From positions 1,391,545-1,455,544 of the forward strand of contig OZ242348.1 of NCBI GenBank assembly GCA_965208625.1: 64,000 nt of DNA. The letters are read 5' to 3'. The notes below the pieces were generated by a model that made no database searches, was not told where the DNA came from, and saw only the letters and a program-made list of their open reading frames with translations. This DNA is from Dehalococcoidia bacterium (GTDB taxonomy: Bacteria; Chloroflexota; Dehalococcoidia; Lucifugimonadales; Australimonadaceae). The position numbers were made by a program, and so were the translations under genes. Of this stretch, positions 44,669 through 64,000 are shown one piece after another; position 1 is the stretch's first letter, and each line of letters starts with the position of its first letter.

Positions 44669-44673
44669 GCCAA

Positions 44674-45222: not shown

Positions 45223-45241
45223 CTCTTCTCCTTTGTGCGCC

Positions 45242-46108: not shown

Positions 46109-46171
46109 GTACGCTCCTGGTCCGGGGTAGTCGAAGGGTTGGTAGTCGGTCCCTCGCGACCCGTCTCCTGC

Positions 46172-46987: not shown

Positions 46988-47237
46988 ATGCACTCCTTTC
47001 AACCTCGCCGGGTTGCAGCAATGGTTCAATCACCCAGGGAAGGACTCACGGTACACCGAACCCGAAGTTGTCGAAAGATGAGGCGCGCGTACACGCCGGG
47101 TAACCCGACCCGTCCTGTCCGGTGCATCAGGTTAGCCTGCCCCGCTTCCCGCGTCGAGGAGGGTGCTGCTCACAGGGACGGCTCGCCCGCTGCTGCAGGC
47201 ATGCCCGGGTACAATCGAGTTCCCCAAGGAGCCAGCA

Positions 47238-47696
47238 ATGCCAACCTGGAAACGCCTCCTCATCGCGTGGTTCTTCGTGCCGGTGCACCGGCTGCTGTTC
47301 CGCCTCTCAGGCGGCCAACTGCTGGGCCGCCTGGAAGGCACAGGAGTGCTCATCCTCGTGACGAAGGGGCGCAGGAGCGGCAAGCCGCGCTCGTCGCCCC
47401 TGCTGTACTTCCGGTTCGGCGAGTTCGACGACCTCATCGTCGTCGCCTCGAACTACGGCCGGGACCGTCATCCCGCGTGGTACCTGAACATCGCCGCCGA
47501 CCCGAACATCTCGGTCGAGGCCAACGGCGAACGTTTCGCCGCGGAGGCTCGCATCACCGAGGGAGATGAGCGGACCGCGCTGTACAACCAGGTGGTAGCA
47601 GCGAACCCACGCTTCGCCATCTATTACGCCGCCACCGACCGCCAGATCCCGGTCGTCTCGCTTCGCCGCGTCGAGACCGGGGAGGAGGGGAGTTGA
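47238..47696 (+). CDS. deazaflavin (F420)-dependent nitroreductase-family protein (DDN/PF04075-like)
   Basis: 152 aa from ATG 47238. ...VTKGRRSGKPRSSPLLY...VASNYGRDRHPAWYLNIAADP signature. Confidence 0.8.
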   Translation: MPTWKRLLIAWFFVPVHRLLFRLSGGQLLGRLEGTGVLILVTKGRRSGKPRSSPLLYFRFGEFDDLIVVASNYGRDRHPAWYLNIAADPNISVEANGERFAAEARITEGDERTALYNQVVAANPRFAIYYAATDRQIPVVSLRRVETGEEGS

Positions 47697-47728
47697 CTCC
47701 CCTCCCCGGTCCTGAGCAAACGTGAAGG

Positions 47729-48883
47729 CTACGTCCTTCGCGCGTCGGTGACGCCTGCGACGCCGGTGCAGTAGGGGATGAACGCCTTCATGTTGCACTG
47801 GGCGCCGGACTTGGCGAGCTCAGCCTCGAAGATCTCGTGGATCTCGCGGTCCTCGTCCTCGTACTCGACCTGGATGCCGCCCTCCTTCATGCTCACGTCG
47901 CCACCCACGGCGGTGTTGGGCGCGATGAAGCCGCCCTTGCCGTCGCGCAGCGCCATGTAGCGGGCGCGGGTCGTGCCGGAGTTGAAGTGCTGGTGATACG
48001 TTCCCTCGCCGGGGATGATGACGACGGTCCCGACCTGCCAGTCGCACTTGATCATGTCGGAGCGGTCAGGTTTGGTCCACAGGAGGGAGAAGCCGGAGTC
48101 GCCGCTGAGCAGGAAGAGGTGTGCGCCCGGCCCATGCCGGTGGGCCTTCTTGTACGTGCCGATGGGGAACTCGGAGATGTGGTTGCCCATGTCGTTCTTG
48201 CCCATCTGCAGCATGGCGTTGATGCCGCCTGCCCCGCGCTCCTTCCAACCGTAAAGCGCCATGTCCGGAGCGTTGGGGATGAAGTTGCTCTCCCAGACGC
48301 GCTTGTTGTAGAGCGTGCCGTTGCCGCTGAACCAGGACTCGTCATCCGAGTAGCGTGAGCGGAACATGAAGTCGTTGTTGAACATGAAGTCCGTGTCGCG
48401 GAAGAGGCGCATCATGGGCGGGGCGTTGGTCGTCGCCATGTAGCGCACCTTCTCGTCACCGGAGCCGTTGAAGTGCTGGTACCAGGCATTCAGGGGGACG
48501 GTGAAGAGGGAGCCTGTCCTCCACTCGAAGGTCTGCTTGCTGTCCTCGTCCATCCATACAGTCGTCGCGCCGCGCCCGGAGACGATGTAGAAGTTGATCT
48601 CGTACATGTGGTGCTCGGGCTCCGACTTGCCGCCGGGTTTGATGTCCACCACGTGCAGGTCGTTGGGCAGGAGCGCATTGTCGATGCGGACAACCGCGCC
48701 ATCGCCGCCCTTGCGCTCCCAGGGACCAACCTCGACCTCGTGCCAGTTAGGGATATAGAAGGTCTTGTGGACCATCACCCCTTCGCTCTCCAGCCAGTCC
48801 TCGTAGGCGTCGGGGATGCGGAAGTCTTCGAGCTGTCCGGTTGGCGTTTCCGCCACCTTCATGTCGGTGCCTTGCATAACCAT
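47729..48883 (-). CDS. bicupin protein (gentisate-dioxygenase-like fold)
   Basis: 384 aa with two cupin barrels (EPEHHMYEINFYIVSGRG and HRHGPGAHLFLLSG). Confidence 0.7.
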   Translation of the reverse strand: MVMQGTDMKVAETPTGQLEDFRIPDAYEDWLESEGVMVHKTFYIPNWHEVEVGPWERKGGDGAVVRIDNALLPNDLHVVDIKPGGKSEPEHHMYEINFYIVSGRGATTVWMDEDSKQTFEWRTGSLFTVPLNAWYQHFNGSGDEKVRYMATTNAPPMMRLFRDTDFMFNNDFMFRSRYSDDESWFSGNGTLYNKRVWESNFIPNAPDMALYGWKERGAGGINAMLQMGKNDMGNHISEFPIGTYKKAHRHGPGAHLFLLSGDSGFSLLWTKPDRSDMIKCDWQVGTVVIIPGEGTYHQHFNSGTTRARYMALRDGKGGFIAPNTAVGGDVSMKEGGIQVEYEDEDREIHEIFEAELAKSGAQCNMKAFIPYCTGVAGVTDARRT

Positions 48884-49003
48884 GGCGCGCCTCCATTGCG
48901 AGATGGCGCGAGCCTACCGCAACCATGAGCAGCGCACAAATGCCCCGCTCACGCACACAAATGAAGGGGCACTTCCTGAACAAACCGACGGGTTCGGCCA
49001 GCC

Positions 49004-50302
49004 TCAGGCGTCCGTGGTTCCCGAGCGTCGCGCTTCGCGTTCCAGCCGCTTTCGCTCGGCGCGCTCCTGCTCCTCCGGCGGGTGAACGTCCTTGAACATC
49101 AGGTAGAGCCCGACGAGGTAGACGGTCTTGAATGCACCGGAGGCAACGAACGGCGCGCTCGCCGAGACCGCCTGCCAGAGGATGGTGGCGAGCGACGGTG
49201 TGACCGCGCCAACGGCTGCCTGGCTCACGTTGGTGATGCTGGCCATGGCCACGCGCTCATCCCGGTTCACGATGGCCATGGTGTAGGACTGCCGCGGGGG
49301 ATTATCCATCTGGCCGAAGAAGGCCCGCACGTACCAGAAGAAGACCGCCAGCCAGGCCGTCGGGGCGAAGGGAACGGCGAAGGTGGCCAACACCGCCGGT
49401 ATGTGGGTAAAGACGATGGTGTTCAGCAGGCCGATCCGGGTCGAAAGCCTCGCGGCTACCCACAGGGAGACCATGTTGAGGAAGGTGGAGCCAGCGAGCA
49501 CGTAGCTGACCTCAGTGAGTTCGAAATCGTGCTCTACGCTGAACCATGCTCCCACGAGGCTGAAGAAGACGAACCGTGTCGCGAAGCCGTCCACCGAGAA
49601 GATGGCAGCGAAGGTAAAGATGGTCTTCCGGGATTCGAGCTTCAGGGGGTTCTGCCATCCGCCCCCGCTGACGCCGGAGTCGATGGCGGGCGAGAGCAGG
49701 CCGTACATGGCGCCGGAGACCAGCATGATGACCGCGTAGGCGACGAACATGAGCTTGAAGCCCGTGATCTCGTCGACGTCGAAGACCGCGACCAGCACGG
49801 CGGGCATGGCAGCGCCGAACGTGCCCGTCAGCCGCGCGGCCCGCTCGCCCATGCCCGCGAGTGCGTACAGGTCCGTGCGGTGCTCGGACGTGGTCGTGTC
49901 GGGAAGGGCCGCCTGCTCCAGCGGCTGCACCGGTCCCCTCGGCCCGCTCCCCGAGATGGCGAGGCTCCCGACGAAGAACGACACGAACGCCAGCAGCGTG
50001 TATTGCTCCGTGAACGCATAGCCAAGCCCGGCGAGCCCCATCATCGCCGTGAACCCGATGAGCAGCCGCCGTCTGCCAAGCGTGTCGCCGATAAAGACGA
50101 CCAGCGTGGCGAAGACGGTGCTGCCGATGGAACCGATCGTGATCAGCAGCCCCATTTCCACCAGGCTGTAGCCCAGTTCGATGAGGTAGATCCCGAAGAA
50201 GACGGCGATGAGCGACTGAGCGAACGTCCGCATGAACCGCGCGGACACCATCAGCCAGGCGTCCCCAGTCACCCAACCAAGCGGACGTGATGAACGTTTC
50301 AC
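49004..50302 (-). CDS. MFS transporter
   Basis: 432 aa, about 12 TM segments. GDTLGRRRLL loop motif. Confidence 0.85.
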   Translation of the reverse strand: MKRSSRPLGWVTGDAWLMVSARFMRTFAQSLIAVFFGIYLIELGYSLVEMGLLITIGSIGSTVFATLVVFIGDTLGRRRLLIGFTAMMGLAGLGYAFTEQYTLLAFVSFFVGSLAISGSGPRGPVQPLEQAALPDTTTSEHRTDLYALAGMGERAARLTGTFGAAMPAVLVAVFDVDEITGFKLMFVAYAVIMLVSGAMYGLLSPAIDSGVSGGGWQNPLKLESRKTIFTFAAIFSVDGFATRFVFFSLVGAWFSVEHDFELTEVSYVLAGSTFLNMVSLWVAARLSTRIGLLNTIVFTHIPAVLATFAVPFAPTAWLAVFFWYVRAFFGQMDNPPRQSYTMAIVNRDERVAMASITNVSQAAVGAVTPSLATILWQAVSASAPFVASGAFKTVYLVGLYLMFKDVHPPEEQERAERKRLEREARRSGTTDA

Positions 50303-50306
50303 GGCT

Positions 50307-51197
50307 TCACCCCCGCGCGGCTATCGCTTCGTAGCGCGCGAGGAGACGCTGGGCGCGCTGCACCACCGGCACGTCGATCATCTTGCCGTCCAGTTGGAAA
50401 GAGCCGCGGCCGGTCTTCTCCGCCTCAGCATTCGCCTCGATGATGCGCTTGGCCAGGGCGACCTCCTCCTCGCCGGGGCTGAATGCCTCGTTGAGCACGG
50501 GCACGACGCTCGGATGGATGCAAGATGCGCCTTCGAGCCCGAAGCGCCTCGCCTTGAGCGCCACCTCCCGCACGGCGTCGAGGTCCTGATAGTCGGCGAC
50601 GGTGCCGAAGATGCCCAGCGCCATCACCCCCGCGGCCTTCGCCGCGTAGACGGACTGGGTCTTCGGATAGAGCAGCGTTTCGGCGTCCGGCTGCATGCCC
50701 AGCGACGACGCCAGGTCCTCCGCGCCGATGGTGATGGCGGCGATGCGCGGGCTCGCCTTCGCGATCTCGCCGATCTGGAAGAACGCCTCCGGCGTCTCGA
50801 CCATCGCCAGGAATGAAGTCGCACCTACCACCATTCCACGCTCCGCTTCCAGCTCCGACACCATCTCGTCCAGCAGCCTGACGTGGGCGGGTCCTGCGAT
50901 CTTCGGCAGGACGAGGGCGTCGACCGCGGGGCATACGCTGGCCTTGATGTCCGGCACGGCAAGCCGCAGCGGCTGATTGACGCGCACCAGCACGTCCGCG
51001 CCCGCCTGCCCGACGCGCTCCGCAGCCGCCTGCACGCCCGCCCGCGCCGACGCCTTCTCTCCAGGCGGGACCGAGTCCTCGAGGTCGAGGATGATACCGT
51101 CGGCGCCGCGCTCGTGAGCCTTGGCGAGGTAACGCTCGACGTTCGCCGGCACGTACAGCAGCGACCGCCACACCGGGAGCTTTCGTTCGTCGGTCAT
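50307..51197 (-). CDS. HpcH/HpaI-CitE family acyl-CoA lyase (citrate lyase beta / malyl-CoA lyase-like)
   Basis: 296 aa. RSLLYVPAN...GADGIILDLEDSV signature. Confidence 0.85.
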   Translation of the reverse strand: MTDERKLPVWRSLLYVPANVERYLAKAHERGADGIILDLEDSVPPGEKASARAGVQAAAERVGQAGADVLVRVNQPLRLAVPDIKASVCPAVDALVLPKIAGPAHVRLLDEMVSELEAERGMVVGATSFLAMVETPEAFFQIGEIAKASPRIAAITIGAEDLASSLGMQPDAETLLYPKTQSVYAAKAAGVMALGIFGTVADYQDLDAVREVALKARRFGLEGASCIHPSVVPVLNEAFSPGEEEVALAKRIIEANAEAEKTGRGSFQLDGKMIDVPVVQRAQRLLARYEAIAARG

Positions 51198-52423
51198 CCG
51201 ATCACACCTCTCGTTCGAAGATCGGCCAGCTCTCCTGCGGAGACGCCCGCGCCGCCGAAGATCTCGTCGTTGTGCTGCCCCAGCCTGGGCGCGGGGTAGC
51301 GGAAAGTGCCCGGCGTGCGCGAGAGGCGAGGCACGATGTTATGCGTCGGGACTGTCCCCACGTCCTCGTCGGGCAGGTCGACAACCACCTCGCGCTCGAT
51401 GACGTGGGGGTCGTCGAGGAACTGAGCGATGTCGTAGACAGGCCCGGCGGTCACGCCAGCGCCATTCAATTCGGCGAGCGCCTCGTCCAATTCGCGTTCG
51501 GCCATCCAGTCCCCGATGATGGCGTCGACCTCATCCCGATGCCGCACCCGCTCGGCGTTGTTCCGGAAGCGGGGGTCGCCGATCGCGTCCTCCCTGCCGA
51601 CGACTCTGAACACGCGTTCCGCCATCGACTGGATGGACGCCGACAGCGCCACCCACTTCCCGTCCTTCGTTGCGTAGACGTTACGGGGGGACGCCGTATT
51701 GGAGGCGCTGCCCACGCGCTGCTTGACGCTGCCATCGATCCGGTATCCGGCCGCGTCGGCGCCCAGGATGGAGAAGACGGGTTCGAGGAGCGAGAGGTCG
51801 ACAACCTGCCCTGCGCCGCCCTTCATTTCGCGCTCCCGCAGCGCGATCAGCACGGCCATGGCGCCGTACAAGCCCGCCGCCATGTCCGCCAGCGCCATCG
51901 GGGGCAGGACGGGCTCGCGGTCGGGGAAGCCGTTGCGGTCCGCGAACCCGGACATCGCCTCCACCAGCGTGCCGAACCCCGGCCGCTCACGATAGGGCCC
52001 GGTCTGGCCGAAGCCGGAGACGCGCACGACGACGAGGCCGGGGTTGTCCGCATGCAGGGTCTCCGGCGCCAGTCCCATCTCCTCCAGCCGTCCAGGGATG
52101 AAGTTCTCGACGATCACGTCGGCGTCCCTGGCCAGCCGCCGCACGAGCGCGCGCCCGTCGTCCTCGCGCAGGTCGACTGACACGCTCTTCTTGTTCCGGC
52201 AGTACGTCTTCCAGTGCGTCTGGACGGAGCTGTCGCCCCAGGCTCGCAGCGGGTCGCCATTCGGCAGCGCCTCGATCTTGACGACCTCGGCGCCGAAGTC
52301 CGCAAGCTGGAGGGTCAGCATGTTCCCGGCCACGAGCCGCGACATGTCGAGCACGCGCAGACCGTCCAGCGGTCCGCGGTCGTCGGGATCGAACTGCCTG
52401 GCGTGAAGCCCCATCCTCCGCAA
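51194..52423 (-). CDS. CaiB/BaiF family III CoA-transferase
   Basis: 409 aa. GLRVLDMSRLVAGNMLTLQLADFGAEVVKIE signature. 4-nt overlap with the downstream lyase gene. Confidence 0.9.
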   Translation of the reverse strand: MRRMGLHARQFDPDDRGPLDGLRVLDMSRLVAGNMLTLQLADFGAEVVKIEALPNGDPLRAWGDSSVQTHWKTYCRNKKSVSVDLREDDGRALVRRLARDADVIVENFIPGRLEEMGLAPETLHADNPGLVVVRVSGFGQTGPYRERPGFGTLVEAMSGFADRNGFPDREPVLPPMALADMAAGLYGAMAVLIALREREMKGGAGQVVDLSLLEPVFSILGADAAGYRIDGSVKQRVGSASNTASPRNVYATKDGKWVALSASIQSMAERVFRVVGREDAIGDPRFRNNAERVRHRDEVDAIIGDWMAERELDEALAELNGAGVTAGPVYDIAQFLDDPHVIEREVVVDLPDEDVGTVPTHNIVPRLSRTPGTFRYPAPRLGQHNDEIFGGAGVSAGELADLRTRGVIG

Positions 52424-52465
52424 CTCCTCTCCCCGCGATTCTACTGCCCTGTTGCTTGCGAGGGG

Positions 52466-53620
52466 CTAGCCGTCCTGCCCGAAGACGGTGCTTCCTACTC
52501 TCATCGACCGCATCACCTCGGCGACAGCGTCCGCGATGAGCTCGCCCGCGCGCGCCGACGCCTCATCCAGGGCCATCGGAGCGTTGACGATGGCCACAAC
52601 CGCGTCGATTCCCTCGGCGTGAACGTCCTCGAAACCCCTGCCGAGTGAGCCGCAGACGGCCAGAACCGGGATATTTCTTCGTTTCGCTCGTCGCGCGACT
52701 CCGATCGGGGCCTTGTTGTAGACCGTCTGGAAGTCGATCTGCCCCTCGCCTGTGATAACCAGGTCGGCCCCCTCCATCTTTTCGTCGAGCCCGACATGGT
52801 CCAGCACGATATCCACGCCCGCCCGCAGCGAACCTCCAAGGAATGCCATCATTCCCCCGCCGAGCCCGCCGGCAGCGCCCGAGCCGGGGACGGCGTCGAT
52901 GCTCGTTCCGATGTCTCGTTCGACGACCTCTGCGAAGTGCTTCAGCGCTGCGTCCAGTTGCTGGACCATACCGGGCGTTGCCCCCTTCTGCGGACCGTAT
53001 ACGGTCGCAGCGCCCTCGGGGCCGGTAAGCGGGTTCGATACGTCGCATGCCACTGAGAACCGGGCCTCCCGCACTCTCTCGTCCAGTCCCGATGTGTCGA
53101 TCCTCCGGAGTTCGGCGAGCGCCGCTCCTCCCGGTGGAAGGTCTTTCCCGGTCTCGTCCAGCAGGCGTACGCCCAGGGCCTGGGCCATCCCCGCACCGCC
53201 GTCGTTCGTTGCGCTTCCGCCGATCCCCACGATGAAGCTGCGGAAACCGGCGTCGAGCGCCTCGCGGATCACCTCACCGAGCCCGTACGTGGTTGCGTGC
53301 AGAGGATCGCGTTCAGCGAGCGAGAGCAGCGCAAGGCCGGAGGTACGCGCCATCTCGATGACGGCGGTCTGCCCGTCGCCGAGCGCGCCCCACTCCGCCG
53401 TAACCGGCCTTCCGACGGGGCCGGTCACCGTTGTGGAGCGGACCTCCCCGCCGGTTGCTTCAACAAGCGTCTCGAGCGTTCCGTCGCCGCCGTCCGCCAC
53501 CGGCACGAGAACGGTCCCGGCGTCCGGGACGACCCGCAGCACCCCTTCCTCCATAGCCCTGGCGGCATCGAGTGCCGAGATGCTTCCCTTGAAGCTCTGC
53601 GGTGCGATGACGACTCTCAT
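52466..53620 (-). CDS. glycerate kinase
   Basis: ATG 53620. MRVVIAPQSFKGSISALDAARAMEEG and C-terminal VITGEG motifs. Confidence 0.85.
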   Translation of the reverse strand: MRVVIAPQSFKGSISALDAARAMEEGVLRVVPDAGTVLVPVADGGDGTLETLVEATGGEVRSTTVTGPVGRPVTAEWGALGDGQTAVIEMARTSGLALLSLAERDPLHATTYGLGEVIREALDAGFRSFIVGIGGSATNDGGAGMAQALGVRLLDETGKDLPPGGAALAELRRIDTSGLDERVREARFSVACDVSNPLTGPEGAATVYGPQKGATPGMVQQLDAALKHFAEVVERDIGTSIDAVPGSGAAGGLGGGMMAFLGGSLRAGVDIVLDHVGLDEKMEGADLVITGEGQIDFQTVYNKAPIGVARRAKRRNIPVLAVCGSLGRGFEDVHAEGIDAVVAIVNAPMALDEASARAGELIADAVAEVMRSMRVGSTVFGQDG

Positions 53621-53770
53621 CACTTGCCTTCCTCGCTCTTCACGAGCGGACTGTGAGGATACTATCGAGCGCAGCCCTCTCAGGCGATTCTCCATCTCAG
53701 GAGAGAGGAGATGCTGTCGGCGGCTACAATGCGGGCGGCGGACCCGCCTATCGGACGCAAGGAGCTGACC

Positions 53771-55396
53771 ATGAAGGCACTGGAAGCGATGGCCGAGATC
53801 CTGAAGCGGGAGGGCGTCGAATACCTCTTCTGCTATCCGACAACCGACCTGATCGACGCCGTTGCCGACGTCGGCATCAGGCCCATCGTGTGTCGACAGG
53901 AGCGCGTCGGGCTCGGCATGGCGGACGGCCTCAGCCGCGCCAGCAACGGCTCGAAGATCGGGGTGTTTGCGATGCAGGCGGGGCCGGGCGCCGAGAATGC
54001 GTTCGCAGGGGTGACGACAGCCTACGCGGATTCCTCGCCGCTCCTCGTATTGCCGTCGGGGTACCCGCGTGACCGCGAGGGCTGGCCCCGCTACTTCACC
54101 GCGGAGCGCGGCTACCGCAACGTGACGAAGTGGCTCGAAACCGTCAACGTCCCCGAGCAGACCGAGGACGCGATGCGGCGCGCCTTCTCCCGGTTGCGCA
54201 ACGGCAGGCCCGGCCCCGTGATGGTCGAGCTGCCGACCGACGTCGCCGAGCTGGACATCGGCGAGACCGGTTACGAGCCGGTCACATCAACGCGCACCCT
54301 CGCAGACCCGCGAGACGTGGAGCGCGCCGCCCGCGCCCTGGCCAACGCCAACGCGCCGGTGATACTGGCGGGACAAGGCGTGCTCTGGGCCGGGGCGACA
54401 GACGAGGTCGTCGAGCTGGCCGAGATGCTGGGGGCGCCTGTCGCGGCGACGCTCCTCGGCAAGAGCGCGTTCCCCGAGACCCACCCGCTCTCCATCGGCA
54501 CAGCCTCGACATCCACCACGCCCATGGTGCGCAGCTTCCTGGACAAGGCCGACGTCATCCTCGCGGTGGGAGCGAGCCTGGCCAAGCACCAGATGAACCT
54601 GCCCCTGCCCGATGGCCGCACCATCATCCAGCTCACCAACGACGAGGCGGACCTGAACAGGAACTACGCCGCCGCTCACCCCTTGCTGGCGGATGCGAGG
54701 CTGGGCATGCGCCAGCTCATCGACGCCGTCCGCGACGCGGGCGGAACGAACGCCAGCCGCCGGTCGGCTGTCGAGACTGAGACCGCGTCGGCATACAACA
54801 CATGGCTCGACGCATGGCACGGCAAGATCGAATCGCAGGACACGCCCATCAACCCGTACCGGGTCGTCTGGGAGCTGAACCGCACCATTCCGGCGGACGA
54901 GGCCATCGTCACCCACGACTCCGGCAGCCCGCGCGACCAGATGGTCCCGTTCTACCGGTCGGCCGGGCCGCGCAGCTACATCGGATGGGGCAAGTCCCAT
55001 GCGCTCGGCACCGGCCTCGGCTTTGCGATGGGCGCCAAGCTCGCAGAACCGGACAAGGTCTGCATCAACTGGATGGGCGATGCCGCGTTCGGCATGACAG
55101 GCCTCGACTTCGAGACCGCGGTGCGCAACGGCATCCCCATCATCACGATGGTGTCGAACAACTCGACGATGGCCATCGAGACCAGGCGGCTCGTCGGCTC
55201 GCACGAGAAGTACGGCACGCGGGACGTTGGCGGCAACTACGCCGACCTCGCCCGCTCGCTGGGCGGCTGGGCGGAGCGCGTCGAGGACCCGGAGGAGGTC
55301 GGCCCCGCGATCCTGCGCGCCCGCCGCGCCACCGAGGACGGCCAGGCAGCGCTGCTGGAGTTCATCACCTCGGCTGAGACGGCGCTGAACCGTTAG
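53771..55396 (+). CDS. thiamine-pyrophosphate-dependent enzyme (acetolactate synthase / glyoxylate carboligase-like)
   Basis: 541 aa from ATG 53771. N-terminal Pyr domain (GVEYLFCYP...QERVGLGMADG) and C-terminal GDAAFGMTG TPP motif. Confidence 0.85.
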   Translation: MKALEAMAEILKREGVEYLFCYPTTDLIDAVADVGIRPIVCRQERVGLGMADGLSRASNGSKIGVFAMQAGPGAENAFAGVTTAYADSSPLLVLPSGYPRDREGWPRYFTAERGYRNVTKWLETVNVPEQTEDAMRRAFSRLRNGRPGPVMVELPTDVAELDIGETGYEPVTSTRTLADPRDVERAARALANANAPVILAGQGVLWAGATDEVVELAEMLGAPVAATLLGKSAFPETHPLSIGTASTSTTPMVRSFLDKADVILAVGASLAKHQMNLPLPDGRTIIQLTNDEADLNRNYAAAHPLLADARLGMRQLIDAVRDAGGTNASRRSAVETETASAYNTWLDAWHGKIESQDTPINPYRVVWELNRTIPADEAIVTHDSGSPRDQMVPFYRSAGPRSYIGWGKSHALGTGLGFAMGAKLAEPDKVCINWMGDAAFGMTGLDFETAVRNGIPIITMVSNNSTMAIETRRLVGSHEKYGTRDVGGNYADLARSLGGWAERVEDPEEVGPAILRARRATEDGQAALLEFITSAETALNR

Positions 55397-55422
55397 AGCG
55401 GGACCGGAAGGGGGATACGTTC

Positions 55423-56190
55423 ATGCGCACCAACACCACCAGGGCCAAACTGCATGAAGGCGAAGTCGTCTTCGGGGGCATCGTCACCCGTTACGCTCCC
55501 GACACCGTGGAGATCCTCGGCGCTCTCGGATACGACTTCGTCATGATCGACTGCGAGCACGGCCCTGCCACCCTGGACCAGGTCGAGCACATGGTCCGCG
55601 CCGCCGAGTCCTTCGACATCACTCCCATCGCCCGCATCCCCGACCACGCCGAGCAGACCATCCTCCGGTTCCTCGACTGCGGCCTCCAAGGGATAATCGT
55701 CCCCCACGTCAACACGGGAGAACAGGCCGCCGCGGTTGCTCGCGCCGCTCGTTACCACCCCGACGGCTACCGGGGAGTGGCCACCGGCCGGACACACGAC
55801 TACGGCATCGGCGTCTCCCGGAGCGAGGCGACGGCGTGGATCAATGCGCAAGTGCTGGTCATCCCGATGGTCGAAGACATCGAGGCCGTCAACAACCTCG
55901 ACGACATCCTCCAGGTTTCCGGCGCCGACGTGCTCCACGTGGCCCCTTCCGACCTGGGCCAGAGCCTGGGCAACCCCGGCGCCGCCGAAGTCCGCCGGGT
56001 AATGAGCGAGGTCATCCCGCGGGTCCGGGCCGGGGGCAAGTTCGTTGGGGTGGGCGGCAACAGTCCAGCCGACACCGCCGGCGTGGCCGAGTTCATCAGG
56101 CAGGGCGCGAACTTCGTGACCGTCTCCGCGTGGGGCCTGCTCCGCGCCGGCGCAGAGGACTTCCTCAGGAACGTCAAGGCCGAGCTTTGA
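55423..56190 (+). CDS. HpcH/HpaI family 2-keto-3-deoxy-acid aldolase
   Basis: 255 aa. LGYDFVMIDCEHGP signature. Confidence 0.85.
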   Translation: MRTNTTRAKLHEGEVVFGGIVTRYAPDTVEILGALGYDFVMIDCEHGPATLDQVEHMVRAAESFDITPIARIPDHAEQTILRFLDCGLQGIIVPHVNTGEQAAAVARAARYHPDGYRGVATGRTHDYGIGVSRSEATAWINAQVLVIPMVEDIEAVNNLDDILQVSGADVLHVAPSDLGQSLGNPGAAEVRRVMSEVIPRVRAGGKFVGVGGNSPADTAGVAEFIRQGANFVTVSAWGLLRAGAEDFLRNVKAEL

Positions 56191-56349
56191 GAACCTCGTA
56201 GGGAGCGCGATCGAAGCTCTTTCGCGATCTTGGCCTCGCAGGGATGCCACGCGGCGAGGAGCTTCCATGCCAACGGTGAGGAGTCCCGGGCACTGGAACT
56301 GTTCCGTGGTCTATTGTTAGTCTTGGGCGCAGAAGAGAGGAGTAGCCGC

Positions 56350-57120
56350 ATGGCCATTGTCAGCGTCGAAATCACGGAACGCGTGCCCTTCGCCGGCGGC
56401 GCGGAATCCGGCGGAGCCCGCCCGTACGAGCGTGTCGACGGGCTGCTGACCCACGCCGTCGACCCCGCGAACCCGGCGAACGTGCTCATCACCGACCTCG
56501 CGCTGGCGCCCCGCGGCGCCGACGGTCTCGTGCGCTTCACGGGCGATTTCACGCTCATCGCACCGGTCGACCGGGAGCACGGCAACGGCGAACTGCTGAT
56601 AGACGTAGTGAACCGGGGACGGCGGCAAGTGATGCCGACCTTCAACATGGCGCCGCCGTCGCGCGTGGGATCGTCGGAGGTCCCCCTCGGCGACGGTTTC
56701 CTCTGCCGCCTGGGTTACACGGTGTTGTCGGTCGGGTGGCAGTGGGACGTCCCGCGCAGTCCGGCGATGATGGGCCTCGAGGCTCCCGTGGCTTTCGAGA
56801 ACGGGAAGCCTGCGACGGGGCAGGTGCTGGTCGAGATCAGGCCCGACGCGCCGCAGCGGACGCGGCTGCTGGCGAACCGCGTCCACAAGCCGTATCCGGC
56901 AGCCGACGTCGACGAGCCGCAGGCCCGGCTGCTGGTGAAGGACTGGGAGGATGGGCCGTACCGGGAGATCCCGCGTTCGGCATGGCGGTTCGCCGCTGGC
57001 AGGGCATTCGGGGGCGGAGTAGTCTTGGGCGCGAAGAGGGTGGTTTGTCGAACGCGGGCAGAAGCCACGGCAGGTGAGGTCATGGCGTTGACCAGCCTGG
57101 TTCGGAAGGGACGGCAATGA
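56350..57120 (+). CDS. hypothetical protein, possibly 3'-truncated
   Basis: ATG 56350 with GAGGAG upstream. The conserved-looking N-terminal two thirds are followed by a low-information tail (GRAFGGGVVLGAKRVVCRTRAEATAG...). The stop overlaps the next start (ATGA). Confidence 0.5.
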   Translation: MAIVSVEITERVPFAGGAESGGARPYERVDGLLTHAVDPANPANVLITDLALAPRGADGLVRFTGDFTLIAPVDREHGNGELLIDVVNRGRRQVMPTFNMAPPSRVGSSEVPLGDGFLCRLGYTVLSVGWQWDVPRSPAMMGLEAPVAFENGKPATGQVLVEIRPDAPQRTRLLANRVHKPYPAADVDEPQARLLVKDWEDGPYREIPRSAWRFAAGRAFGGGVVLGAKRVVCRTRAEATAGEVMALTSLVRKGRQ

Positions 57121-57578
57121 CGGAAACCTACATCGGGAAGACGGTCTCCGATTTCACACTTCAGTCCAGCGATGGAAAGACGATATCCCTTGGCAGCCTT
57201 CGCGGACGGAAGGTCCTGCTGTACTTCTTCACGAGTCCGGGCGGTGGCAACTGAACCCGCATGGCTCTTGGGTACCGAGAGCATGCTGCGGGGTTCACCG
57301 AGAAGAACGTCTTGCTGTTCGGGGTCCATGACGGAAGCCTCGATGCTGCACGACAGTGGGTCGAGAAGGAGCAGCTTCCGTTCGCGGTCCTGAACGACCC
57401 TGACCGGCGAGTAGGCATCGAGTTGGGCATGTCCGCTCTCGATGGAGAAAGGTACGTCAATGACCCCTCAGACGGAAGGAGGCCTGCAGTTGTCATCGAC
57501 GAACACGGCGCGATCTGCGCGTGGGAACCGGACATGAACCACACCGATCAGATCGCACAGTTGCTGGAGCGTCTGTAG
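57117..57578 (+). CDS. AhpC/TSA (BCP)-like peroxiredoxin selenoprotein; UGA 57252-57254 read as Sec
   Basis: ATG 57117 is in frame with track ORF 57261..57578. The product reads ...GRKVLLYFFTSPGGGN-U-TRMALGYREHAAGFTEKNVLLFGVHDGS...LPFAVLNDP. U aligns with the peroxidatic Cys of the TPGCT motif. Confidence 0.75.
57259..57286 (+). promoter_or_regulatory. SECIS-like hairpin
   Basis: GCAUG-(G)-CUCUUGG / CCGAGAG-CAUGC, about 11-12 bp with one bulged G. The apex is GGUACC, which puts G/U 17-20 nt after the UGA. Confidence 0.6.
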
Positions 57579-57660
57579 GAACCGGCCCTGCCTCAGGGCG
57601 CAGTCCTCGATCGTCCCTTCATGGCCGGTCGGAAGAACACAGGGAAACAAGGAGGACCCA

Positions 57661-58593
57661 ATGAAGTTCGTGATGTACAACGACAACCAGCCCGGCATCC
57701 TGACCGATGCGGGCGTGATAGACATCGGCGACCTCTGCCCCGGCGGCGGGCAGGCCGCTATCGTCCATCTGGTCACCAACTACGACGACCTGAAGCCCCA
57801 GCTGGAAACCCGCGCAGCCGAGGGTGCGCCGGTCGAAGGCGCGCAACTGCGGGCGCCGCTGCCGCGCCCCAACAAGATTCTCTGCATGGGCGGCAACTAC
57901 CGCGAGTTCGGTGCACGGGAGCCTTCACCGATGTGGGGCTTCACCAAGAGCCTCCACAGCATCCTGGACCCGGGCGGCACCGTGGTCCTCCCTGACATAG
58001 ACGCCAACATCTTCCACCACGAGGCGGAGCTCGTGTTGGTCTTCGGCAAGGGCGGCAAGGACATACCGGCGTCGGAGGCCATGGATCACGTCTTCGGCTA
58101 CACGGCGGGCGTGGACGTCTCGGCGCGGATGCCGGCGCCCGGCGGCGGCCGGGTGCCCAACACGCTGCCCGTCGCCGAGCACAAATCGCACCCCACCTTC
58201 TGCCCCCTCGGCCCCTGCATAGTGACCAGGGACGAGATCGCGAACCCGGAGAACCTGCAGGTCTCCTTGAGCGTCGACGGCGAGCTGCGCGTCAACTACA
58301 ACACCGACGACCTCGCCCACTCCATCGCCGAGTCGATAGAGTTCGTCGCGGCCATCGAGGAGATCAGCCCCGGCGACGTGCTCTTCATGGGCACCAACCA
58401 CCAGGGCCTCGGCGCGATGCAGGACGGCGACACCATCGACATGGGCGTTGAGGGCGTGGGCAGGTTCACCCTCACGGTGAGCGACCCGCTCAAGCGCCGG
58501 TGGCCCAGGGGCGTCGACGAGGCGTCCGCCAGGGACGTGCGCGAGGGCGCCGGCGGCCCCGGCCGTCAGGCCCGGCCTCTGCCGGCCGTATAA
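57661..58593 (+). CDS. fumarylacetoacetate hydrolase (FAH) family protein
   Basis: 310 aa. PNKILCMGGNYREF and HHEAELVLVFGK signature segments. Confidence 0.85.
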   Translation: MKFVMYNDNQPGILTDAGVIDIGDLCPGGGQAAIVHLVTNYDDLKPQLETRAAEGAPVEGAQLRAPLPRPNKILCMGGNYREFGAREPSPMWGFTKSLHSILDPGGTVVLPDIDANIFHHEAELVLVFGKGGKDIPASEAMDHVFGYTAGVDVSARMPAPGGGRVPNTLPVAEHKSHPTFCPLGPCIVTRDEIANPENLQVSLSVDGELRVNYNTDDLAHSIAESIEFVAAIEEISPGDVLFMGTNHQGLGAMQDGDTIDMGVEGVGRFTLTVSDPLKRRWPRGVDEASARDVREGAGGPGRQARPLPAV

Positions 58594-58863: not shown

Positions 58864-60036
58864 ATGCCACGTCTATCTGGAGCATTCGTTAGGACCGTAA
58901 CCAAGCCCGGTCGCTACGGCGATGGCGGACGGGGCTCGCATGGACTTGCCTTACTGGTCAAACCCACCACAACGGACAGGGTGCCCAAGTCATGGGTGCA
59001 ACGCATCCGGGTCAATGGGCGGTCTACGAACATCGGGCTAGGGCCGTACCCCCTTGTCACCCTAGCACAAGCACGCGAGGTCGCCATCGAGAACACGAGG
59101 GCCGTAAGGACCGGGGCAGACCCTCAAGCCGACCGCAAACGTAAGACGACAATCCCGACCTTCGCCGAGGCAGCCGAAAGGGTCATCGCTCTCTATTCTG
59201 AGAGTTGGAAGGATGGCAGCCGGACTGCGAGGATCTGGCGCTCACGGCTCGCAGAGTACGTTTACCCCGCCGTTGGGCGTTTCAGGATTGACGAGCTCAC
59301 AACCGCCCACGTCCTCAATGTGCTCACTCCGATATGGGCAACCCGGCGAGAGACAGCCCGGAAGGTGCGGCAGTATCTCAATGCAGTCATGGCATGGGCT
59401 GTGGCCCAAGGCTACCGTGAGGACAACCCAGCTGCGGCAGACGTTATCAGCGCGGCGATGCCACGCGCAGGCAACGTGACGCAGCATCACCGAGCCCTCG
59501 GGTATACGGACGTTCCGGCTGCTCTTGCTGGGGTGCAGGCCTCCAACGCCTACGCATCCACGAAGGATGCGCTTGCGTTCCTCGTGCTTACAGCAGCCCG
59601 ATCTGGCGAAGTTCGAGGCGCGACCTGGACAGAGATCGACCTCGATACCGCGACGTGGACCATTCCTGGAGCGCGCATGAAGACAGGGCGCGAGCACCGT
59701 GTCCCGCTATCCAGCGCTGCACTTGAAGTGCTGCATCGAGCCCACGAGTACGCTGACTCGTCCGGCCTCCTGTTTCCGTCCATCAGGGGAAGAGCGCTCT
59801 CAGACAATACGCTGTCGAAGCTACTGCGCGACAACGGAGTCCTCTGCGTGCCGCACGGATTCCGCTCCACGTTCAGGGTGTGGGCCGCAGAGTGCTCTTC
59901 TGCGCCGCGGGAAATCGCGGAGATGGCATTGGCTCACGTCGAGGGCAGTGCGGCGGAACTTGCGTATCGTCGGACAGACTATTTCGAGGCGCGAAGGTCG
60001 CTTATGGAGGAATGGGCAAAGGCCTGCCAGCCTTAG
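58864..60036 (+). CDS. int: tyrosine-type site-specific recombinase (P4-like integrase with N-terminal arm-binding domain)
   Basis: 390 aa. N-terminus ...KPGRYGDGGRGSHGLALLVKPTTTDRVPKSWVQRIRVNGRSTNIGLGPYP. C-terminal catalytic segments HGFRSTF and LAHVEGSAAELAYRRTDY. Confidence 0.9.
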   Translation: MPRLSGAFVRTVTKPGRYGDGGRGSHGLALLVKPTTTDRVPKSWVQRIRVNGRSTNIGLGPYPLVTLAQAREVAIENTRAVRTGADPQADRKRKTTIPTFAEAAERVIALYSESWKDGSRTARIWRSRLAEYVYPAVGRFRIDELTTAHVLNVLTPIWATRRETARKVRQYLNAVMAWAVAQGYREDNPAAADVISAAMPRAGNVTQHHRALGYTDVPAALAGVQASNAYASTKDALAFLVLTAARSGEVRGATWTEIDLDTATWTIPGARMKTGREHRVPLSSAALEVLHRAHEYADSSGLLFPSIRGRALSDNTLSKLLRDNGVLCVPHGFRSTFRVWAAECSSAPREIAEMALAHVEGSAAELAYRRTDYFEARRSLMEEWAKACQP

Positions 60037-60413: not shown

Positions 60414-61412
60414 TTGTGCACTTGGGTTGTTGGAGTGAGCCTATTGCCACTGGCTGCAATCGGACTACTGGTATGGGGTCATGGGCGCCCTGTGGTCCCA
60501 TGGCTCGCGCTGGCTACTGTAGTCGTTAGTGCAGTGCCGGTCTTCAGTTTGTCGGCCACGCTCGCGACCTACGGCAGCGCCGGGGCAGACCTCCACACGT
60601 TCAGGACACTTACCAACGGTCTCGGAACAGCGTCCTACGGTTTTGCCGGTCTCGGCGTCCTCGCGCTGTGTGTCCGGCTGCGACCGGTGGCATTCATACC
60701 CCTCGGCGCGGTCCTCGCGGGACTCATCCTGATCGGCTCCTTCTACCAGTACATCCCACCTTCCAACTCGGGCTCAGCGGTCACCCTGCTATTCGCAGGG
60801 CCGGGGTTTGCCCTAGTCATCTATGGGCTCTACTTATGGCGCCGCAATGGGCTGTCAGGTAGCCTGCAGGAGTGGAACCCAGGCTTGAAACTGGTCACGG
60901 TGCTGGGGATTGTGGCCGGATTCGGAGTCGCTGGGTTGCTTGCCTATCAGACCGAGCCTAACCGCCCCAACTGGACTTTTCAGCCACTCGACTTGCCTCG
61001 TCTCGGAGCGACTTCCGAGTTGGTTGTGGAGGGTGTGGTGGTCAACAAAGAGGCTTGGAGCAGGGAGTCTCATCGGCCAAGCGGCAGGAGATACACGATC
61101 AGATACACCATCTACCGCGTGGATGTCTCCCAGGTCTGGAGGGGAGAGGAGGCGGAGTCCGTGTCTGTAGCGGTGGCAGATTGGAGCCCCGTTAGCCTTA
61201 CGCAGGGTCAGTCTTATCTGTTGTTCTCCTCAGGAATGGCAAACCAAGAAGACTTCCCTGGCCATTGGCGGCTGAGCGAACCGCATAGGGTGTGGACTGT
61301 CGAGGATGGCATCTTCCATCCGCATTTTGGCCTAGATCCTTCGAGACCATTAGGCCGCGAGAGGGTGGTTGAACTCCTTCTAGAAAATCCGTTGAGTACT
61401 CCCACACCGTAG
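60414..61412 (+). CDS. hypothetical polytopic membrane protein with a C-terminal soluble domain
   Basis: 332 aa with a TTG start in the track (GGGGGAGAAGG upstream). About 6 TM segments followed by a ~150-aa beta-rich domain. No motif recognised. Confidence 0.5.
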   Translation: MCTWVVGVSLLPLAAIGLLVWGHGRPVVPWLALATVVVSAVPVFSLSATLATYGSAGADLHTFRTLTNGLGTASYGFAGLGVLALCVRLRPVAFIPLGAVLAGLILIGSFYQYIPPSNSGSAVTLLFAGPGFALVIYGLYLWRRNGLSGSLQEWNPGLKLVTVLGIVAGFGVAGLLAYQTEPNRPNWTFQPLDLPRLGATSELVVEGVVVNKEAWSRESHRPSGRRYTIRYTIYRVDVSQVWRGEEAESVSVAVADWSPVSLTQGQSYLLFSSGMANQEDFPGHWRLSEPHRVWTVEDGIFHPHFGLDPSRPLGRERVVELLLENPLSTPTP

Positions 61413-61608
61413 GCAGAGTAGGCGTGGCTGGCTAGGGGTGATACCCGGCGAATAGCGGCGAACGACCTGCCACTACTCGTGCTGCTTGGCCTTTCAGCAC
61501 TGAGCGGCTAAGGTCGCTGCTAGCCTGGTCTTGGCATGCAGTTTCTCCGTTGCGTTGCCTATCCAGTTGCCGAGCATATAGGTTCCCGTATTGAGGAGGA
61601 AGGCAGCC

Positions 61609-64000
61609 ATGAATAATGCTCGGAGCGTCGGCGCTCTAGTTGGCGAGACCGTCGTTGACTTTCTCCGGGGAGCCGTCGAGAGGCATGGTCCTCGCGACGC
61701 CCTCCTGTTCAAGCCGGCATTCCGGTATCTACGTTGGACCTACTCCCGTCTGTGGGACGAGTCAGGGCAGGTCGCAACTCTCCTCCAACGCCGGGGGCTG
61801 AGGAAAGGGGACCAAGTCATCCTCTGGGGCCCCAATTCCCCCCACTGGGTGCTCATCTTCTTCGGCTGCCTGAGGGCGGGAGTCGTTCTCGTCCCCCTCG
61901 ACCTACGCAGCGCTCCCGACTACGTCGCAAGGGTCGCGTCCAGAACGGAGCCGAAGCTGGCCTTCACGTCGCGGTTCACTCCAAAGGGAGAGGTTGACCT
62001 CGGCATCCCGGAGATGGCCTTCGAGGATCTCGAGGCCGCCATCGCCGGTCTGCCCGAGCCGGAGGACGTGGAAATAGAGCCGAACGACCTTGCGGAGATC
62101 ATGTTCACATCCGGCACGACGGGCGACCCGAAGGGTGTCATGCTCACCCATCGGAATCTGACGGCGAATATCGAAGGTGTAGCCCAGTACATCTCCTGCG
62201 CGCCCTCCGGCAGGCTCCTGTCCATCCTTCCCCTGAGTCACATGTACGAGCAGATGGGCGGGTTGTTCGTGACCCTGCACAACGGCGCCAGCGTGACCTA
62301 CCCCACCAGCCGCCAGCCGACCGTTCTCTCCCGGACGATGCGCGAGCGCAAGATCACCATCATGCTGCTCGTCCCCCAGGGGCTGGAGCTGCTCATGAAC
62401 GGGATCGAGCGGGAGGTGGCCCGGCAGAACAAGCAGGCCCTGTGGAATAAGCTCCTCAAGGTAGCCGGACGGACACCGTTCCGGCTGCGACGTCATCTCT
62501 TCCGCCGGGTGCACAAGCAGTTCGGGGGAAAGCTGGACTTCATCGTCTCAGGCGGGGCCGCGCTGGATGCAGACCTCGCGCGCAAGTGGGAGCTGCTCGG
62601 AGTCAAGATCGTCCAGGGCTACGGGACCACCGAGGCGTCGCCCGTCATCAGCAATCACACCATCGAGGAGCGGCGCCACGACTCCACCGGCCGGCCGCTG
62701 CCGAACGTTGAGGTCAGGATCAGCAGCGAGGGCGAGATACTGGCGCGCGGGGAGAACATCACCCCCGGCTACTGGCGCGCACCGGAGGAGACCGCCAAGG
62801 TCTTCGACGGCGACTGGTACAGGACGGGCGACCTGGGTTACTTCGACGGCGAGGGGTTCCTGCATATCCAGGGTCGGATGAAGGACATGATCGTGCTGCC
62901 GAGCGGCCAGAACGTCTTCCCAGAGGACATCCAGTCGGTCCTGGTGAAGCACCCCCGGGTCAAGGATGCCTCCGTGGTGGGACTGGCGAAGGGTTCGTCC
63001 GTGGAGGTGCACGCGGCCCTGATCCTGGACGATGCCGGCGATGCCCAAGACGCGGTCGCGTGGACCAACGACCAGCTTGCCGAACAGCAACGGATCAGGG
63101 GCTTCACCGTCTGGCAGGACGAGGACTTCCCCCGCACGCACACGCTAAAGGTGAAGAAGCAGATCATCATCGATACGATTCTCGGGAGGCTGCAGCCGGA
63201 GCCCCCGACTGCGGCGCCTTCCGGCGGCAGGCTGGCGGGCGGACAGAGGGGCCTGCTCCACATCATCGCCGAGGTGAGCAAACGCGACGTCGGGGACCTC
63301 GTTGACGAGGCGGCACTCGGCGACGACCTCGAACTCGACTCGCTCGGCCGGGTCGAGCTGCTGTCGGCGGTCGAAGCAGAGCTCGGCGTCTACATGGATG
63401 AGAGCCAGGTGGGCCCGGAGACGACGGTCCGGCAACTCGCCGGCCTCGTGGAGAAGGGGTCGAGGAACCCGCCCATGATGAGCTTCCCGCGTTGGGGCAT
63501 GCAGTGGTGGTGCCGCATGACCCGCGGACTCCTTCAACGGGGAGTCGTCTTCCCGCTCGTCGCCCTTCCCTACGGCCTGAGGGTGACGGGCCGCGAGCAC
63601 TTGGAAGGCATCACCGGCCCCGTGCTCTTCGCGTCGAACCACAACCTCGGTCTGGACAACCCGTTAATCATCAAGGCCGTTCCCCTCAAGTGGCGTCGCC
63701 GGATGGCCGTGGCGGGGGCTGCCGATCTCTGGAGGAACCCGGTCTGGTGGATCATGAACCCACTCCTGGGAAACGGCTTCCCGCTGGCAAGGGAAGGCTC
63801 CGTCAGGCCCAGCCTGGAGAATATGGGGAAGATCATGGACGACGGCTGGTCCGTGCTCATCTACCCGGAAGGCGAACTCACCGTCGGAGGCCCGATCAAG
63901 CCCTTCATGAGCGGCGCCGGACTCGTCGCCGTCGAGGGACGTATCCCCGTCGTTCCGCTGCGCCTGCACGTCCACAAGCTGGGCTCGCCCAGACGATTCC
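61609..64000 (+). CDS. tri-domain fusion: AMP-dependent acyl ligase + acyl carrier domain + PlsC-type acyltransferase; 3' end lies outside the window
   Basis: Not in the ORF track because there is no stop before the window end. Frame 1 is open from ATG 61609 (GAGGAGGAAGG upstream). Motifs: TSGTTGDPKG, GYGTTE, YRTGDLG, GRMKDM; DDLELDSLGRVELL; SNHNLGLD (H-x4-D) and IYPEGE. Confidence 0.85.
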   Translation, partial: MNNARSVGALVGETVVDFLRGAVERHGPRDALLFKPAFRYLRWTYSRLWDESGQVATLLQRRGLRKGDQVILWGPNSPHWVLIFFGCLRAGVVLVPLDLRSAPDYVARVASRTEPKLAFTSRFTPKGEVDLGIPEMAFEDLEAAIAGLPEPEDVEIEPNDLAEIMFTSGTTGDPKGVMLTHRNLTANIEGVAQYISCAPSGRLLSILPLSHMYEQMGGLFVTLHNGASVTYPTSRQPTVLSRTMRERKITIMLLVPQGLELLMNGIEREVARQNKQALWNKLLKVAGRTPFRLRRHLFRRVHKQFGGKLDFIVSGGAALDADLARKWELLGVKIVQGYGTTEASPVISNHTIEERRHDSTGRPLPNVEVRISSEGEILARGENITPGYWRAPEETAKVFDGDWYRTGDLGYFDGEGFLHIQGRMKDMIVLPSGQNVFPEDIQSVLVKHPRVKDASVVGLAKGSSVEVHAALILDDAGDAQDAVAWTNDQLAEQQRIRGFTVWQDEDFPRTHTLKVKKQIIIDTILGRLQPEPPTAAPSGGRLAGGQRGLLHIIAEVSKRDVGDLVDEAALGDDLELDSLGRVELLSAVEAELGVYMDESQVGPETTVRQLAGLVEKGSRNPPMMSFPRWGMQWWCRMTRGLLQRGVVFPLVALPYGLRVTGREHLEGITGPVLFASNHNLGLDNPLIIKAVPLKWRRRMAVAGAADLWRNPVWWIMNPLLGNGFPLAREGSVRPSLENMGKIMDDGWSVLIYPEGELTVGGPIKPFMSGAGLVAVEGRIPVVPLRLHVHKLGSPRRF

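Follow-up and report, generated by a model that had tools for sequence, protein, structure and literature searches.

We analysed a window of 64,000 nucleotides from contig OZ242348.1 of a Dehalococcoidia bacterium and found at its 3' end a gene that is absent from the accompanying track of open reading frames (ORFs). The plus-strand frame starting at 61609 is a real, intact and strongly conserved gene of a marine SAR202 (Chloroflexota) bacterium, encoding a protein of 835 amino acid (aa) residues. The main result for the window is this correction of the annotation. The fusion protein joins an adenylating domain (A), an acyl carrier protein domain (ACP) and a PlsC-type acyltransferase (AT) in one chain. 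From the domain anatomy and the gene context, we think it rather probable that a single polypeptide activates a fatty acid, loads it onto its own carrier in cis and transfers the acyl group to a glycerolipid acceptor, which would make activation and transfer self-contained.

The gene lies in frame 1 of the plus strand. It opens with an ATG at 61609-61611, preceded at a distance of 5 nt by the Shine-Dalgarno-like GAGGAGGAAGG (61593..61603, read from the sequence), and continues without a stop through 64000, the edge of the window. The coding sequence in the window (61609..64000) covers residues 1-797 of the 835 and leaves the window at its 3' edge. An earlier reading of the same DNA, the original prediction, had described a frame of more than 797 codons open to the last base, and 797 stop-free codons were translated. 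It had also proposed recovering the 3' end from a longer contig, and the end was obtained from two further sequences. The database protein P0001, encoded on a 3.3 Mb contig, has 835 aa and is 100% identical. The contig MPMJ01000074 (L001, "SAR202 cluster bacterium bin16"), which belongs to an independent metagenome-assembled genome (MAG), was 99.56% identical over 3616 nt with zero gaps and has a stop codon directly after codon 835. Judged from these copies, the window misses only the final 38 codons and the stop, with no extra domain beyond its edge.

In the ORF list, all entries for 61609-64000 are either on the minus strand or out of frame on the plus strand, the latter being three in number (61734, 62567 and 63060). 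The fusion gene is missing because the ORF lister omits ORFs that run off an end. The original prediction had blamed the unreached stop for this, and the description of the lister, which excludes run-off ORFs, agrees with it. That the stop codon falls outside the window could also point to a chance open frame or a pseudogene. However, the GC content at the three codon positions was 0.67/0.44/0.85, a pattern as in native genes, with a third-position value (GC3) of 0.92 in the neighbouring fumarylacetoacetate-hydrolase-family (FAH) gene and 66% GC in the genome. The dN/dS ratio against eight homologues was 0.11-0.18, which corresponds to purifying selection. Both the GC3 and the dN/dS values oppose a non-functional gene, as do the identical and the 99.6%-identical full-length copies in independent assemblies and the homologues that share its architecture, more than 7000 in number. 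The chance that the gene is non-functional is negligible, and we regard this reading as effectively refuted.

Pfam scans for the AMP-binding, PP-binding and acyltransferase families, which had been proposed as a check, matched all three. The adenylate-forming (ANL) N-terminal domain at residues 22-389 (61672..62775, on the plus strand like all parts of the gene) was recognised by PF00501 (AMP-binding) with an E value of 1e-79. It is followed by the ANL hinge and C-terminal subdomain at residues ~404-517 (62818..63159), with a weak match to PF13193 (AMP-binding_C) at 441-512. A flexible linker rich in Pro, Gly and Ala, residues 529-546 (63193..63246), is unconserved and had a predicted local distance difference test (pLDDT) below 50 in the model. 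The acyl carrier domain at residues 549-614 (63253..63450) matched PF00550 at E 6e-7 (30 bits; cutoff 20.8), and its predicted phosphopantetheine-attachment serine is Ser578 (codon 63340-63342) in the DSL motif 577-579. A Trp/Arg-rich amphipathic helix at residues ~625-652 (63481..63564), modelled as helices 628-631 and 633-652, precedes the acyltransferase core. The acyltransferase domain, of the PlsC/lysophospholipid acyltransferase (LPLAT) type, spans residues 657-797 in the window (63577..64000) and continues to 835. It matched PF01553 at 657-785 with E 1e-13, and its catalytic pair is His678 (63640-63642) and Asp683 (63655-63657) in NHNLGLD 677-683.

All motifs quoted in the original prediction (MFTSGTTGDPKGVMLTH, GYGTTE, WYRTGDLG, GRMKDMIV, LGDDLELDSLGRVELLSAVE, FASNHNLGLDNP and LIYPEGE) were found in the translation. 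The ANL domain has the P-loop TSGTTGDPKG at 167-176, GYGTTE at 337-342, YRTGD at 404-408, GRMKD at 422-426 and PRTHTLK at 508-514, with K514 as the A10 catalytic lysine. Core motifs A3, A5, A7 and A8 and the A10 lysine place the domain in the ANL superfamily. Like members of PF00550, the carrier is modelled as a four-helix bundle in which helix II begins with the conserved D-S-L serine. The acyltransferase belongs to the PlsC/LPLAT family (PF01553) by an H-x4-D block I and an (F/Y)-P-E-G block III (YPEG, 752-755) on a PlsC-like fold, and has PVVP at 780-783. An alignment of 40 family members with 24-55% identity to the query, two Fusobacteriota proteins included, was searched for invariant columns. 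These were S168, G169, T171, P174, G176, Y338, G339, E342, G407, D408 and K514 in the ANL domain and N677, H678, D683, P753, E754 and G755 in the acyltransferase, and in the carrier D577, S578 and L579 did not vary from Dehalococcoidia to Fusobacteriota. The invariant columns fall on catalytic positions of all three modules. The three modules claimed in the original prediction are borne out by Pfam, by these residues and by the predicted structure. No transmembrane segment was found anywhere in the protein, and the sole strongly hydrophobic stretch falls within the core of the ANL fold. The protein is probably soluble or peripheral, and the helix at ~625-652 may, from its form in the model, act as a membrane-interface element.

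The AlphaFold2 model of the full-length protein had a pLDDT of 83.5 and a predicted template modelling (TM) score of 0.79, with residues 529-546 disordered. Foldseek with this model was saturated by A-domain matches and was uninformative for the acyltransferase. The ACP-AT half was therefore modelled separately from P0153, an 88%-identical fragment, with a pLDDT of 85.4. The adenylating part was nearest to acyl-coenzyme A (CoA) ligases, namely oxalate-CoA ligase, FadD13, feruloyl-CoA synthetase, MatB and MenE, with target-normalised TM scores of about 0.8-0.87 between its fold and CoA ligases. Long-chain-fatty-acid-CoA ligases were also the best NCBIfam matches of the N-terminal half. No entry named as one of the fatty acyl-AMP ligases (FAALs) occurred among the top 25 NCBIfam, the top 60 PDB sequence and the top 50 Foldseek matches. 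These lists comprised CoA ligases, A domains of non-ribosomal peptide synthetases (NRPS) and loading domains of polyketide synthases, together with luciferases, one carboxylic acid reductase and one acyl-ACP synthetase. The A5-A7 spacing was 61 residues, a gap into which the FAAL insertion of about 20 residues would presumably not fit. By its nearest relatives and the A5-A7 spacing, the adenylating domain should be classed as CoA-ligase-like and outside the FAALs.

For the acyltransferase of the ACP-AT model, Foldseek placed 5KYM, the PlsC of Thermotoga maritima, first (E 5e-8, 214 aligned columns), followed by plant glycerol-3-phosphate acyltransferase (GPAT), PatA and human GPAT1. 5KYM was also the sole PDB sequence match for this domain. 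The carrier model superposed on the AcpP-type ACPs of type II fatty acid synthase (FAS) with a root mean square deviation of about 1.8 A. In NCBIfam, the ACP-AT half matched AGP_acyltrn (TIGR00530) best, then Aas-type models and then acyl carrier protein models, all of them under the cutoff. With 47.8 bits against a cutoff of 102.95, it falls outside TIGR00530, and with the Aas models it scored 23-37 bits against cutoffs of 886-1349. The full protein reached 171 and 162 bits with Aas models that have cutoffs of 1221 and 1349.

There is nothing new in the A-ACP-PlsC architecture, which is shared by a large and uniform family of ~830-aa proteins that extends across several phyla and is already catalogued, if poorly named. 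At E <= 1e-30, a phmmer search against 1.84 billion representatives (50% clustering) gave 17,093 proteins, many presumably with a match in the adenylation domain only. The best 150 of these were nearly all ~800-900 aa long, collinear with the query from ~13 to 835 and 33-56% identical, and the 150th still had an E value of 1e-129. At E <= 1e-50, a profile search yielded 7197 proteins; PF00501 and PF01553 are present in those listed, and PF00550 in nearly all of them. By Pfam, Fusobacterium animalis has a protein of 824 aa with the same architecture, and Ilyobacter polytropus has a tandem pair of such paralogues with 827 and 819 aa; the architecture is also present in a Woesearchaeota MAG (P0290, 845 aa). 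The tandem pair of Ilyobacter polytropus lies on pILYOP01 (L082, 1179-6346), and some Dehalococcoidia genomes have two dispersed copies of the family (L016/L019 on OZ244792.1; L013/L014). A plasmid collection gave no match over 80% or more of the query, and the partial matches in Fusobacterium and Ilyobacter proved to have the same architecture. A word-index search with the ACP-AT half returned mainly fragments of the same clade. The public names are generic or wrong, such as "AMP-binding protein", "long-chain acyl-CoA synthetase" or "2-succinylbenzoate--CoA ligase", and fragments of the family are labelled "1-acyl-sn-glycerol-3-phosphate acyltransferase".

In the mechanism that we favour, the ANL domain would use ATP to convert a free fatty acid, probably of medium or long chain, to the acyl-AMP. 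Ser578 of the carrier in the same chain would then receive the acyl group on its phosphopantetheine thiol. With the flexible linker, the carrier so loaded could reach the C-terminal PlsC-type domain and dock there, and the His678/Asp683 pair would move the acyl group onto a hydroxyl of an acceptor built on glycerol phosphate. Most likely this acceptor would be a lysophospholipid, 1-acyl-glycerol-3-phosphate or another, and the product phosphatidic acid or a phospholipid. The cell would in this way salvage fatty acids or remodel its membrane with no need of free acyl-CoA or the soluble FAS ACP.

The gene context in distant relatives supports phospholipid synthesis. On three independent contigs with fusion proteins 46-48% identical to the query, the fusion gene is followed by a CDP-alcohol phosphatidyltransferase gene and then by a CDP-diglyceride synthase (CdsA) gene (L086 7521-9027, L087 7511-9023 and L089 4120-5756). 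The CDP-alcohol phosphatidyltransferase, of ~205 aa, is divergent and was overlooked by the precomputed Pfam annotation. One of the three contigs also has a gene with a diacylglycerol (DAG) kinase domain nearby. The fusion gene heads a compact phospholipid-synthesis operon in these contigs, and the operon speaks for phospholipid synthesis since CdsA and the CDP-alcohol transferase are enzymes that consume phosphatidic acid. Related clusters at about the same level of identity include proteins that NCBI attributes to Dehalococcoidia. In a Woesearchaeota MAG (GCA_016188155.1; L085 4612-7538), a 4'-phosphopantetheinyl transferase (PPTase) gene ends exactly at the start of the fusion gene, and the flanks are clearly archaeal with Spt5, L11, S17e and Topo VI. 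Archaea are generally not known to have an FAS ACP. The presence of a bacterial-type A-ACP-PlsC gene on this DPANN contig hints at ester-lipid salvage in an archaeon.

The close relatives have a different neighbour. The close set comprised 80 loci with 71-99% identical proteins, all from Dehalococcoidia, SAR202 or Chloroflexota MAGs, several of which (bin16, APA_bin, SB0661_bin) we take from their names to be from sponge metagenomes. The flanking ORFs of these loci were clustered without prior choice of a family. The sole recurrent neighbour was a gene for a metallo-beta-lactamase (MBL)-fold protein of ~240 aa with the motif THAHPDHSGG, upstream and on the same strand. It was found in 62 of the 80 loci (for example L037 9247-9972 and L003 9207-9926), in nearly all of which it ends 0-150 nt before the fusion gene, and a relative with 62% identity also has it upstream (L088, 3985-4698). 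The shared strand and the short spacing suggest co-transcription. The MBL protein matched generic B3, glyoxalase II (GloB) and lactonase-like models only, all far under their cutoffs, and a specific partner function was rejected on account of this generic similarity. The gene is absent from the remaining 18 loci and from the corresponding position in the window, and in L008 a 25-residue C-terminal remnant is found upstream of the fusion gene (2661-2735), which indicates that the MBL partner was lost repeatedly. A distant MBL paralogue with ~26-30% identity (PF00753, E 6e-20) is encoded on the minus strand of the window at 29625-30260, 31 kb from the fusion gene, to which it is probably unrelated. 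A linkage to a PPTase gene was not found in the close clade, except for a PPTase-like match 4.6 kb away in L060 that is probably a coincidence.

Several points weigh against acylation of a glycerolipid from the cis-loaded carrier. The phospholipid operon is confined to the distant clade; no CdsA, CDP-alcohol transferase or other phospholipid gene lies beside the fusion gene in the 80 close loci, and no lipid gene lies near it in the window. The conserved MBL partner has no role in the favoured mechanism. The acceptor is not assignable by homology because the NCBIfam scores are far below the curated cutoffs, and with an A domain that is CoA-ligase-like and not of the FAAL type, some acyl-CoA may be formed. 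A characterised A-ACP-PlsC enzyme without a reductase was not found in the searchable literature, and for ElbD of Myxococcus xanthus, which has the three modules behind a reductase, acyltransferase activity was not detected in vitro (PMC9131029).

The acceptor might also lie outside the glycerophospholipids. It could be an intermediate of an aminolipid, as for OlsA, a glycolipid, as for PatA, or else a small specialised metabolite. The MBL hydrolase would then be a partner that, for example, supplies the acceptor or hydrolyses mis-loaded carrier. Its position 0-150 nt upstream on the same strand in 62 of the 80 loci, and its recurrence in the 62%-identical relative, would fit such a partnership, as would close loci that all lack phospholipid genes nearby, PatA among the structural matches and an acyltransferase score well under the cutoff for 1-acylglycerol-3-phosphate acyltransferases (AGPATs). 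However, the nearest structure and the best profiles are a lysophosphatidic acid acyltransferase and the Aas models, and distant members are linked to CdsA and the CDP-alcohol transferase. The similarity of the MBL protein is generic and far under the cutoffs, and its gene is dispensable, as its absence from 18 of the 80 loci and from the window indicates. An acceptor other than a glycerophospholipid is unlikely on this balance. We give still less credit to the view that the A domain is an ordinary acyl-CoA synthetase, that the acyltransferase draws on diffusible acyl-CoA or cellular acyl-ACP and that the internal carrier is vestigial or regulatory. The A domain is indeed nearest to CoA ligases (FadD13 and the feruloyl-, oxalyl- and malonyl-CoA synthetases) rather than to FAALs, and the PP-binding match is modest with 30 bits, some relatives falling under the Pfam threshold. 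A vestigial carrier is at odds with Ser578 and the DSL motif, which are invariant from Dehalococcoidia to Fusobacteriota, with the confident model of a four-helix ACP and with the PPTase gene coupled to the fusion gene in the archaeon. Moreover, the A domains of NRPS lack FAAL features and yet load carriers in cis.

It is highly improbable that the protein is an ElbD-type ether-lipid enzyme, in which a reductase encoded elsewhere would reduce the tethered acyl group for the synthesis of alkyl-glycerol ether lipids. Sponges, the presumed habitat from the MAG names, are rich in ether lipids, and the order of acyl-CoA synthetase (ACS), ACP and AGPAT corresponds to the C-terminal three quarters of ElbD. 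BLAST surveys also list ElbD homologues in Chloroflexota and Woesearchaeia (PMC11868695). However, Pfam found no NAD_binding_4/fatty acyl reductase (FAR) domain in the protein, and no FAR-type reductase was seen in the upstream 332-aa ORF of the window or as a conserved neighbour in the 80 loci. Neither the window nor the 80 loci contained elbB- or elbE-like neighbours. A domain-checked study of sponges gave only Ger homologues for Chloroflexota (10.64898/2026.06.23.733905), and Pontiella, which has an elbD homologue, makes no ether lipids (PMC11868695).

Upstream of the fusion gene, the window contains a tyrosine integrase gene (58864-60036) and an ORF for a multi-pass membrane protein of 332 aa (60414-61412), which has several hydrophobic helices and falls into no Pfam or PHROG family; the FAH gene and a thiamine pyrophosphate (TPP) enzyme gene lie further upstream. 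The segment 58594-61608 (~3 kb) has 56-62% GC and a GC3 of 0.66-0.67, whereas its flanks have 65-68% GC and a GC3 of 0.85-0.92. The integrase and the membrane ORF fill the position of the MBL gene, both in the window and in L001. The segment was probably inserted from a foreign source and is probably what is left of an integrative element that took the place of the MBL-fold gene. At its edges, no tRNA and no convincing att repeats were found, only short imperfect repeats. The 332-aa ORF occurs elsewhere only in L001 among the 80 loci, and synteny is lacking for the FAH and TPP genes; the window flanks were rejected as conserved neighbours on these grounds. The 332-aa ORF was also considered as a hidden reductase of a split ElbD and was rejected, since it has several hydrophobic helices and no Rossmann-type, Pfam or PHROG match.

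The tyrosine integrase has a relative at other loci of the close set. In L037, L038, L041, L046 and L052 (~12580-14460), a tRNA-Ala(CGC) gene follows the fusion gene, and a tyrosine integrase with 49% identity to that of the window lies ~300 nt past the tRNA. This arrangement is a classical tRNA-targeted island beside the fusion gene. Further upstream in the window, 40917-58593 is an organic-acid catabolism and transport neighbourhood of a kind typical of SAR202, and no lipid genes occur in it. Its products are TctC/TctA transport proteins, a protein with an isochorismatase domain, an alpha/beta hydrolase, a cupin, a major facilitator superfamily transporter, an HpcH-type aldolase, a family III CoA-transferase, a glycerate kinase, the TPP enzyme and the FAH-family hydrolase.

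For the family as a whole, it is possible, though doubtful, that the ~830-aa proteins form a CoA-independent and FAS-independent module in which one protein carries out the acylation that gives phosphatidic acid or phospholipid, and with which ester-lipid membranes could be built or remodelled straight from scavenged free fatty acids. If this were true, it might explain their presence in host- or community-dependent lineages such as sponge-associated SAR202, the subsurface Dehalococcoidia with the CdsA operon and the DPANN Woesearchaeota archaeon with its coupled PPTase gene. The MBL-fold partner of SAR202 would then be a new accessory hydrolase of the salvage route, and the counts of 'ElbD homologues' obtained by BLAST in Chloroflexota and Woesearchaeia would reflect ester-lipid salvage and not ether-lipid capacity. 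The chemistry itself would not surprise a lipid biochemist because the domains predict it. The characterisation of one member would define a third fused route from free fatty acids to lipids, beside Aas and ElbD, and would also aid the reading of "ElbD homologue" matches in metagenomic lipid surveys.

Among known systems, the original prediction had named Aas and ElbD for comparison. Its description of an Aas-type logic with reversed domain order and a built-in carrier agrees with the order A, ACP, AT found by Pfam. Aas of E. coli likewise combines a PlsC-type acyltransferase with an ANL domain and re-acylates lysophospholipids through an ACP-bound intermediate. In Aas, however, the acyltransferase precedes the A domain, the carrier is the separate cellular AcpP, and the enzyme works with LplT, whereas the fusion protein has its own carrier and no LplT-like transporter adjoins its gene in the window or the 80 loci. 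An Aas orthologue is ruled out by the domain order and by the scores of 23-37 bits against the cutoffs of 886-1349 (NF005959, NF006386 and NF005291). The acyltransferase shares the HX4D and PEG blocks and the nearest solved fold with the T. maritima PlsC (5KYM) at ~20% identity, but the acyl donor would come on the fused carrier and not as free acyl-ACP or acyl-CoA. AasS and AasC (Vibrio harveyi, Chlamydia) carry out the same ATP-dependent loading of exogenous fatty acid onto ACP for phospholipids, and the A domain matched the AasS structure 8HSY (E 1e-29). The genes for the synthetase and a lysophospholipid acyltransferase are neighbours in Chlamydia (PMC5693948). In the AasS/AasC systems the three functions reside on separate proteins, whereas here they are fused in one chain. 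Some FAAL-like domains are also fused to lysophospholipid acyltransferases (PMC8460268; PMC12820801), but the A domain here is CoA-ligase-like.

The comparison with ElbD proved apt. ElbD of M. xanthus (MXAN_1528, UniProt Q1DC43) consists of a FAR-like reductase, an ACS, an ACP and an AGPAT-like acyltransferase (PMC9131029); by this published description, the same consecutive ACS-ACP-AGPAT modules stand in one polypeptide behind an extra N-terminal reductase. Activities of the ACS and ACP domains were reported in vitro (PMC9131029). In contrast, the fusion protein lacks the N-terminal FAR-like (NAD_binding_4) reductase that defines the ether-lipid chemistry of ElbD. The fusion gene also lacks elbB, elbC and elbE neighbours, and no HAD or epimerase genes recur beside it. 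In sponge symbionts, ElbD-type genes likewise adjoin CDP-alcohol phosphatidyltransferase and DAG kinase genes (10.64898/2026.06.23.733905), which resembles the arrangement on L086, L087 and L089. According to Lorenzen et al. (2014), as cited in PMC9131029, almost all ElbD-like homologues in other phyla are without the FAR domain, and by its domain content the fusion protein matches these 'ElbD-like homologues lacking the FAR1 domain'. BLAST surveys count "ElbD homologues" in MAGs of Chloroflexota and Woesearchaeia (PMC11868695), whereas in the domain-checked study of sponges the ElbD matches were confined to Poribacteria, Acidobacteriota and Latescibacterota (preprint 10.64898/2026.06.23.733905). 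The difference suggests that the counts of ElbD homologues are inflated by proteins without a reductase, such as the fusion protein.

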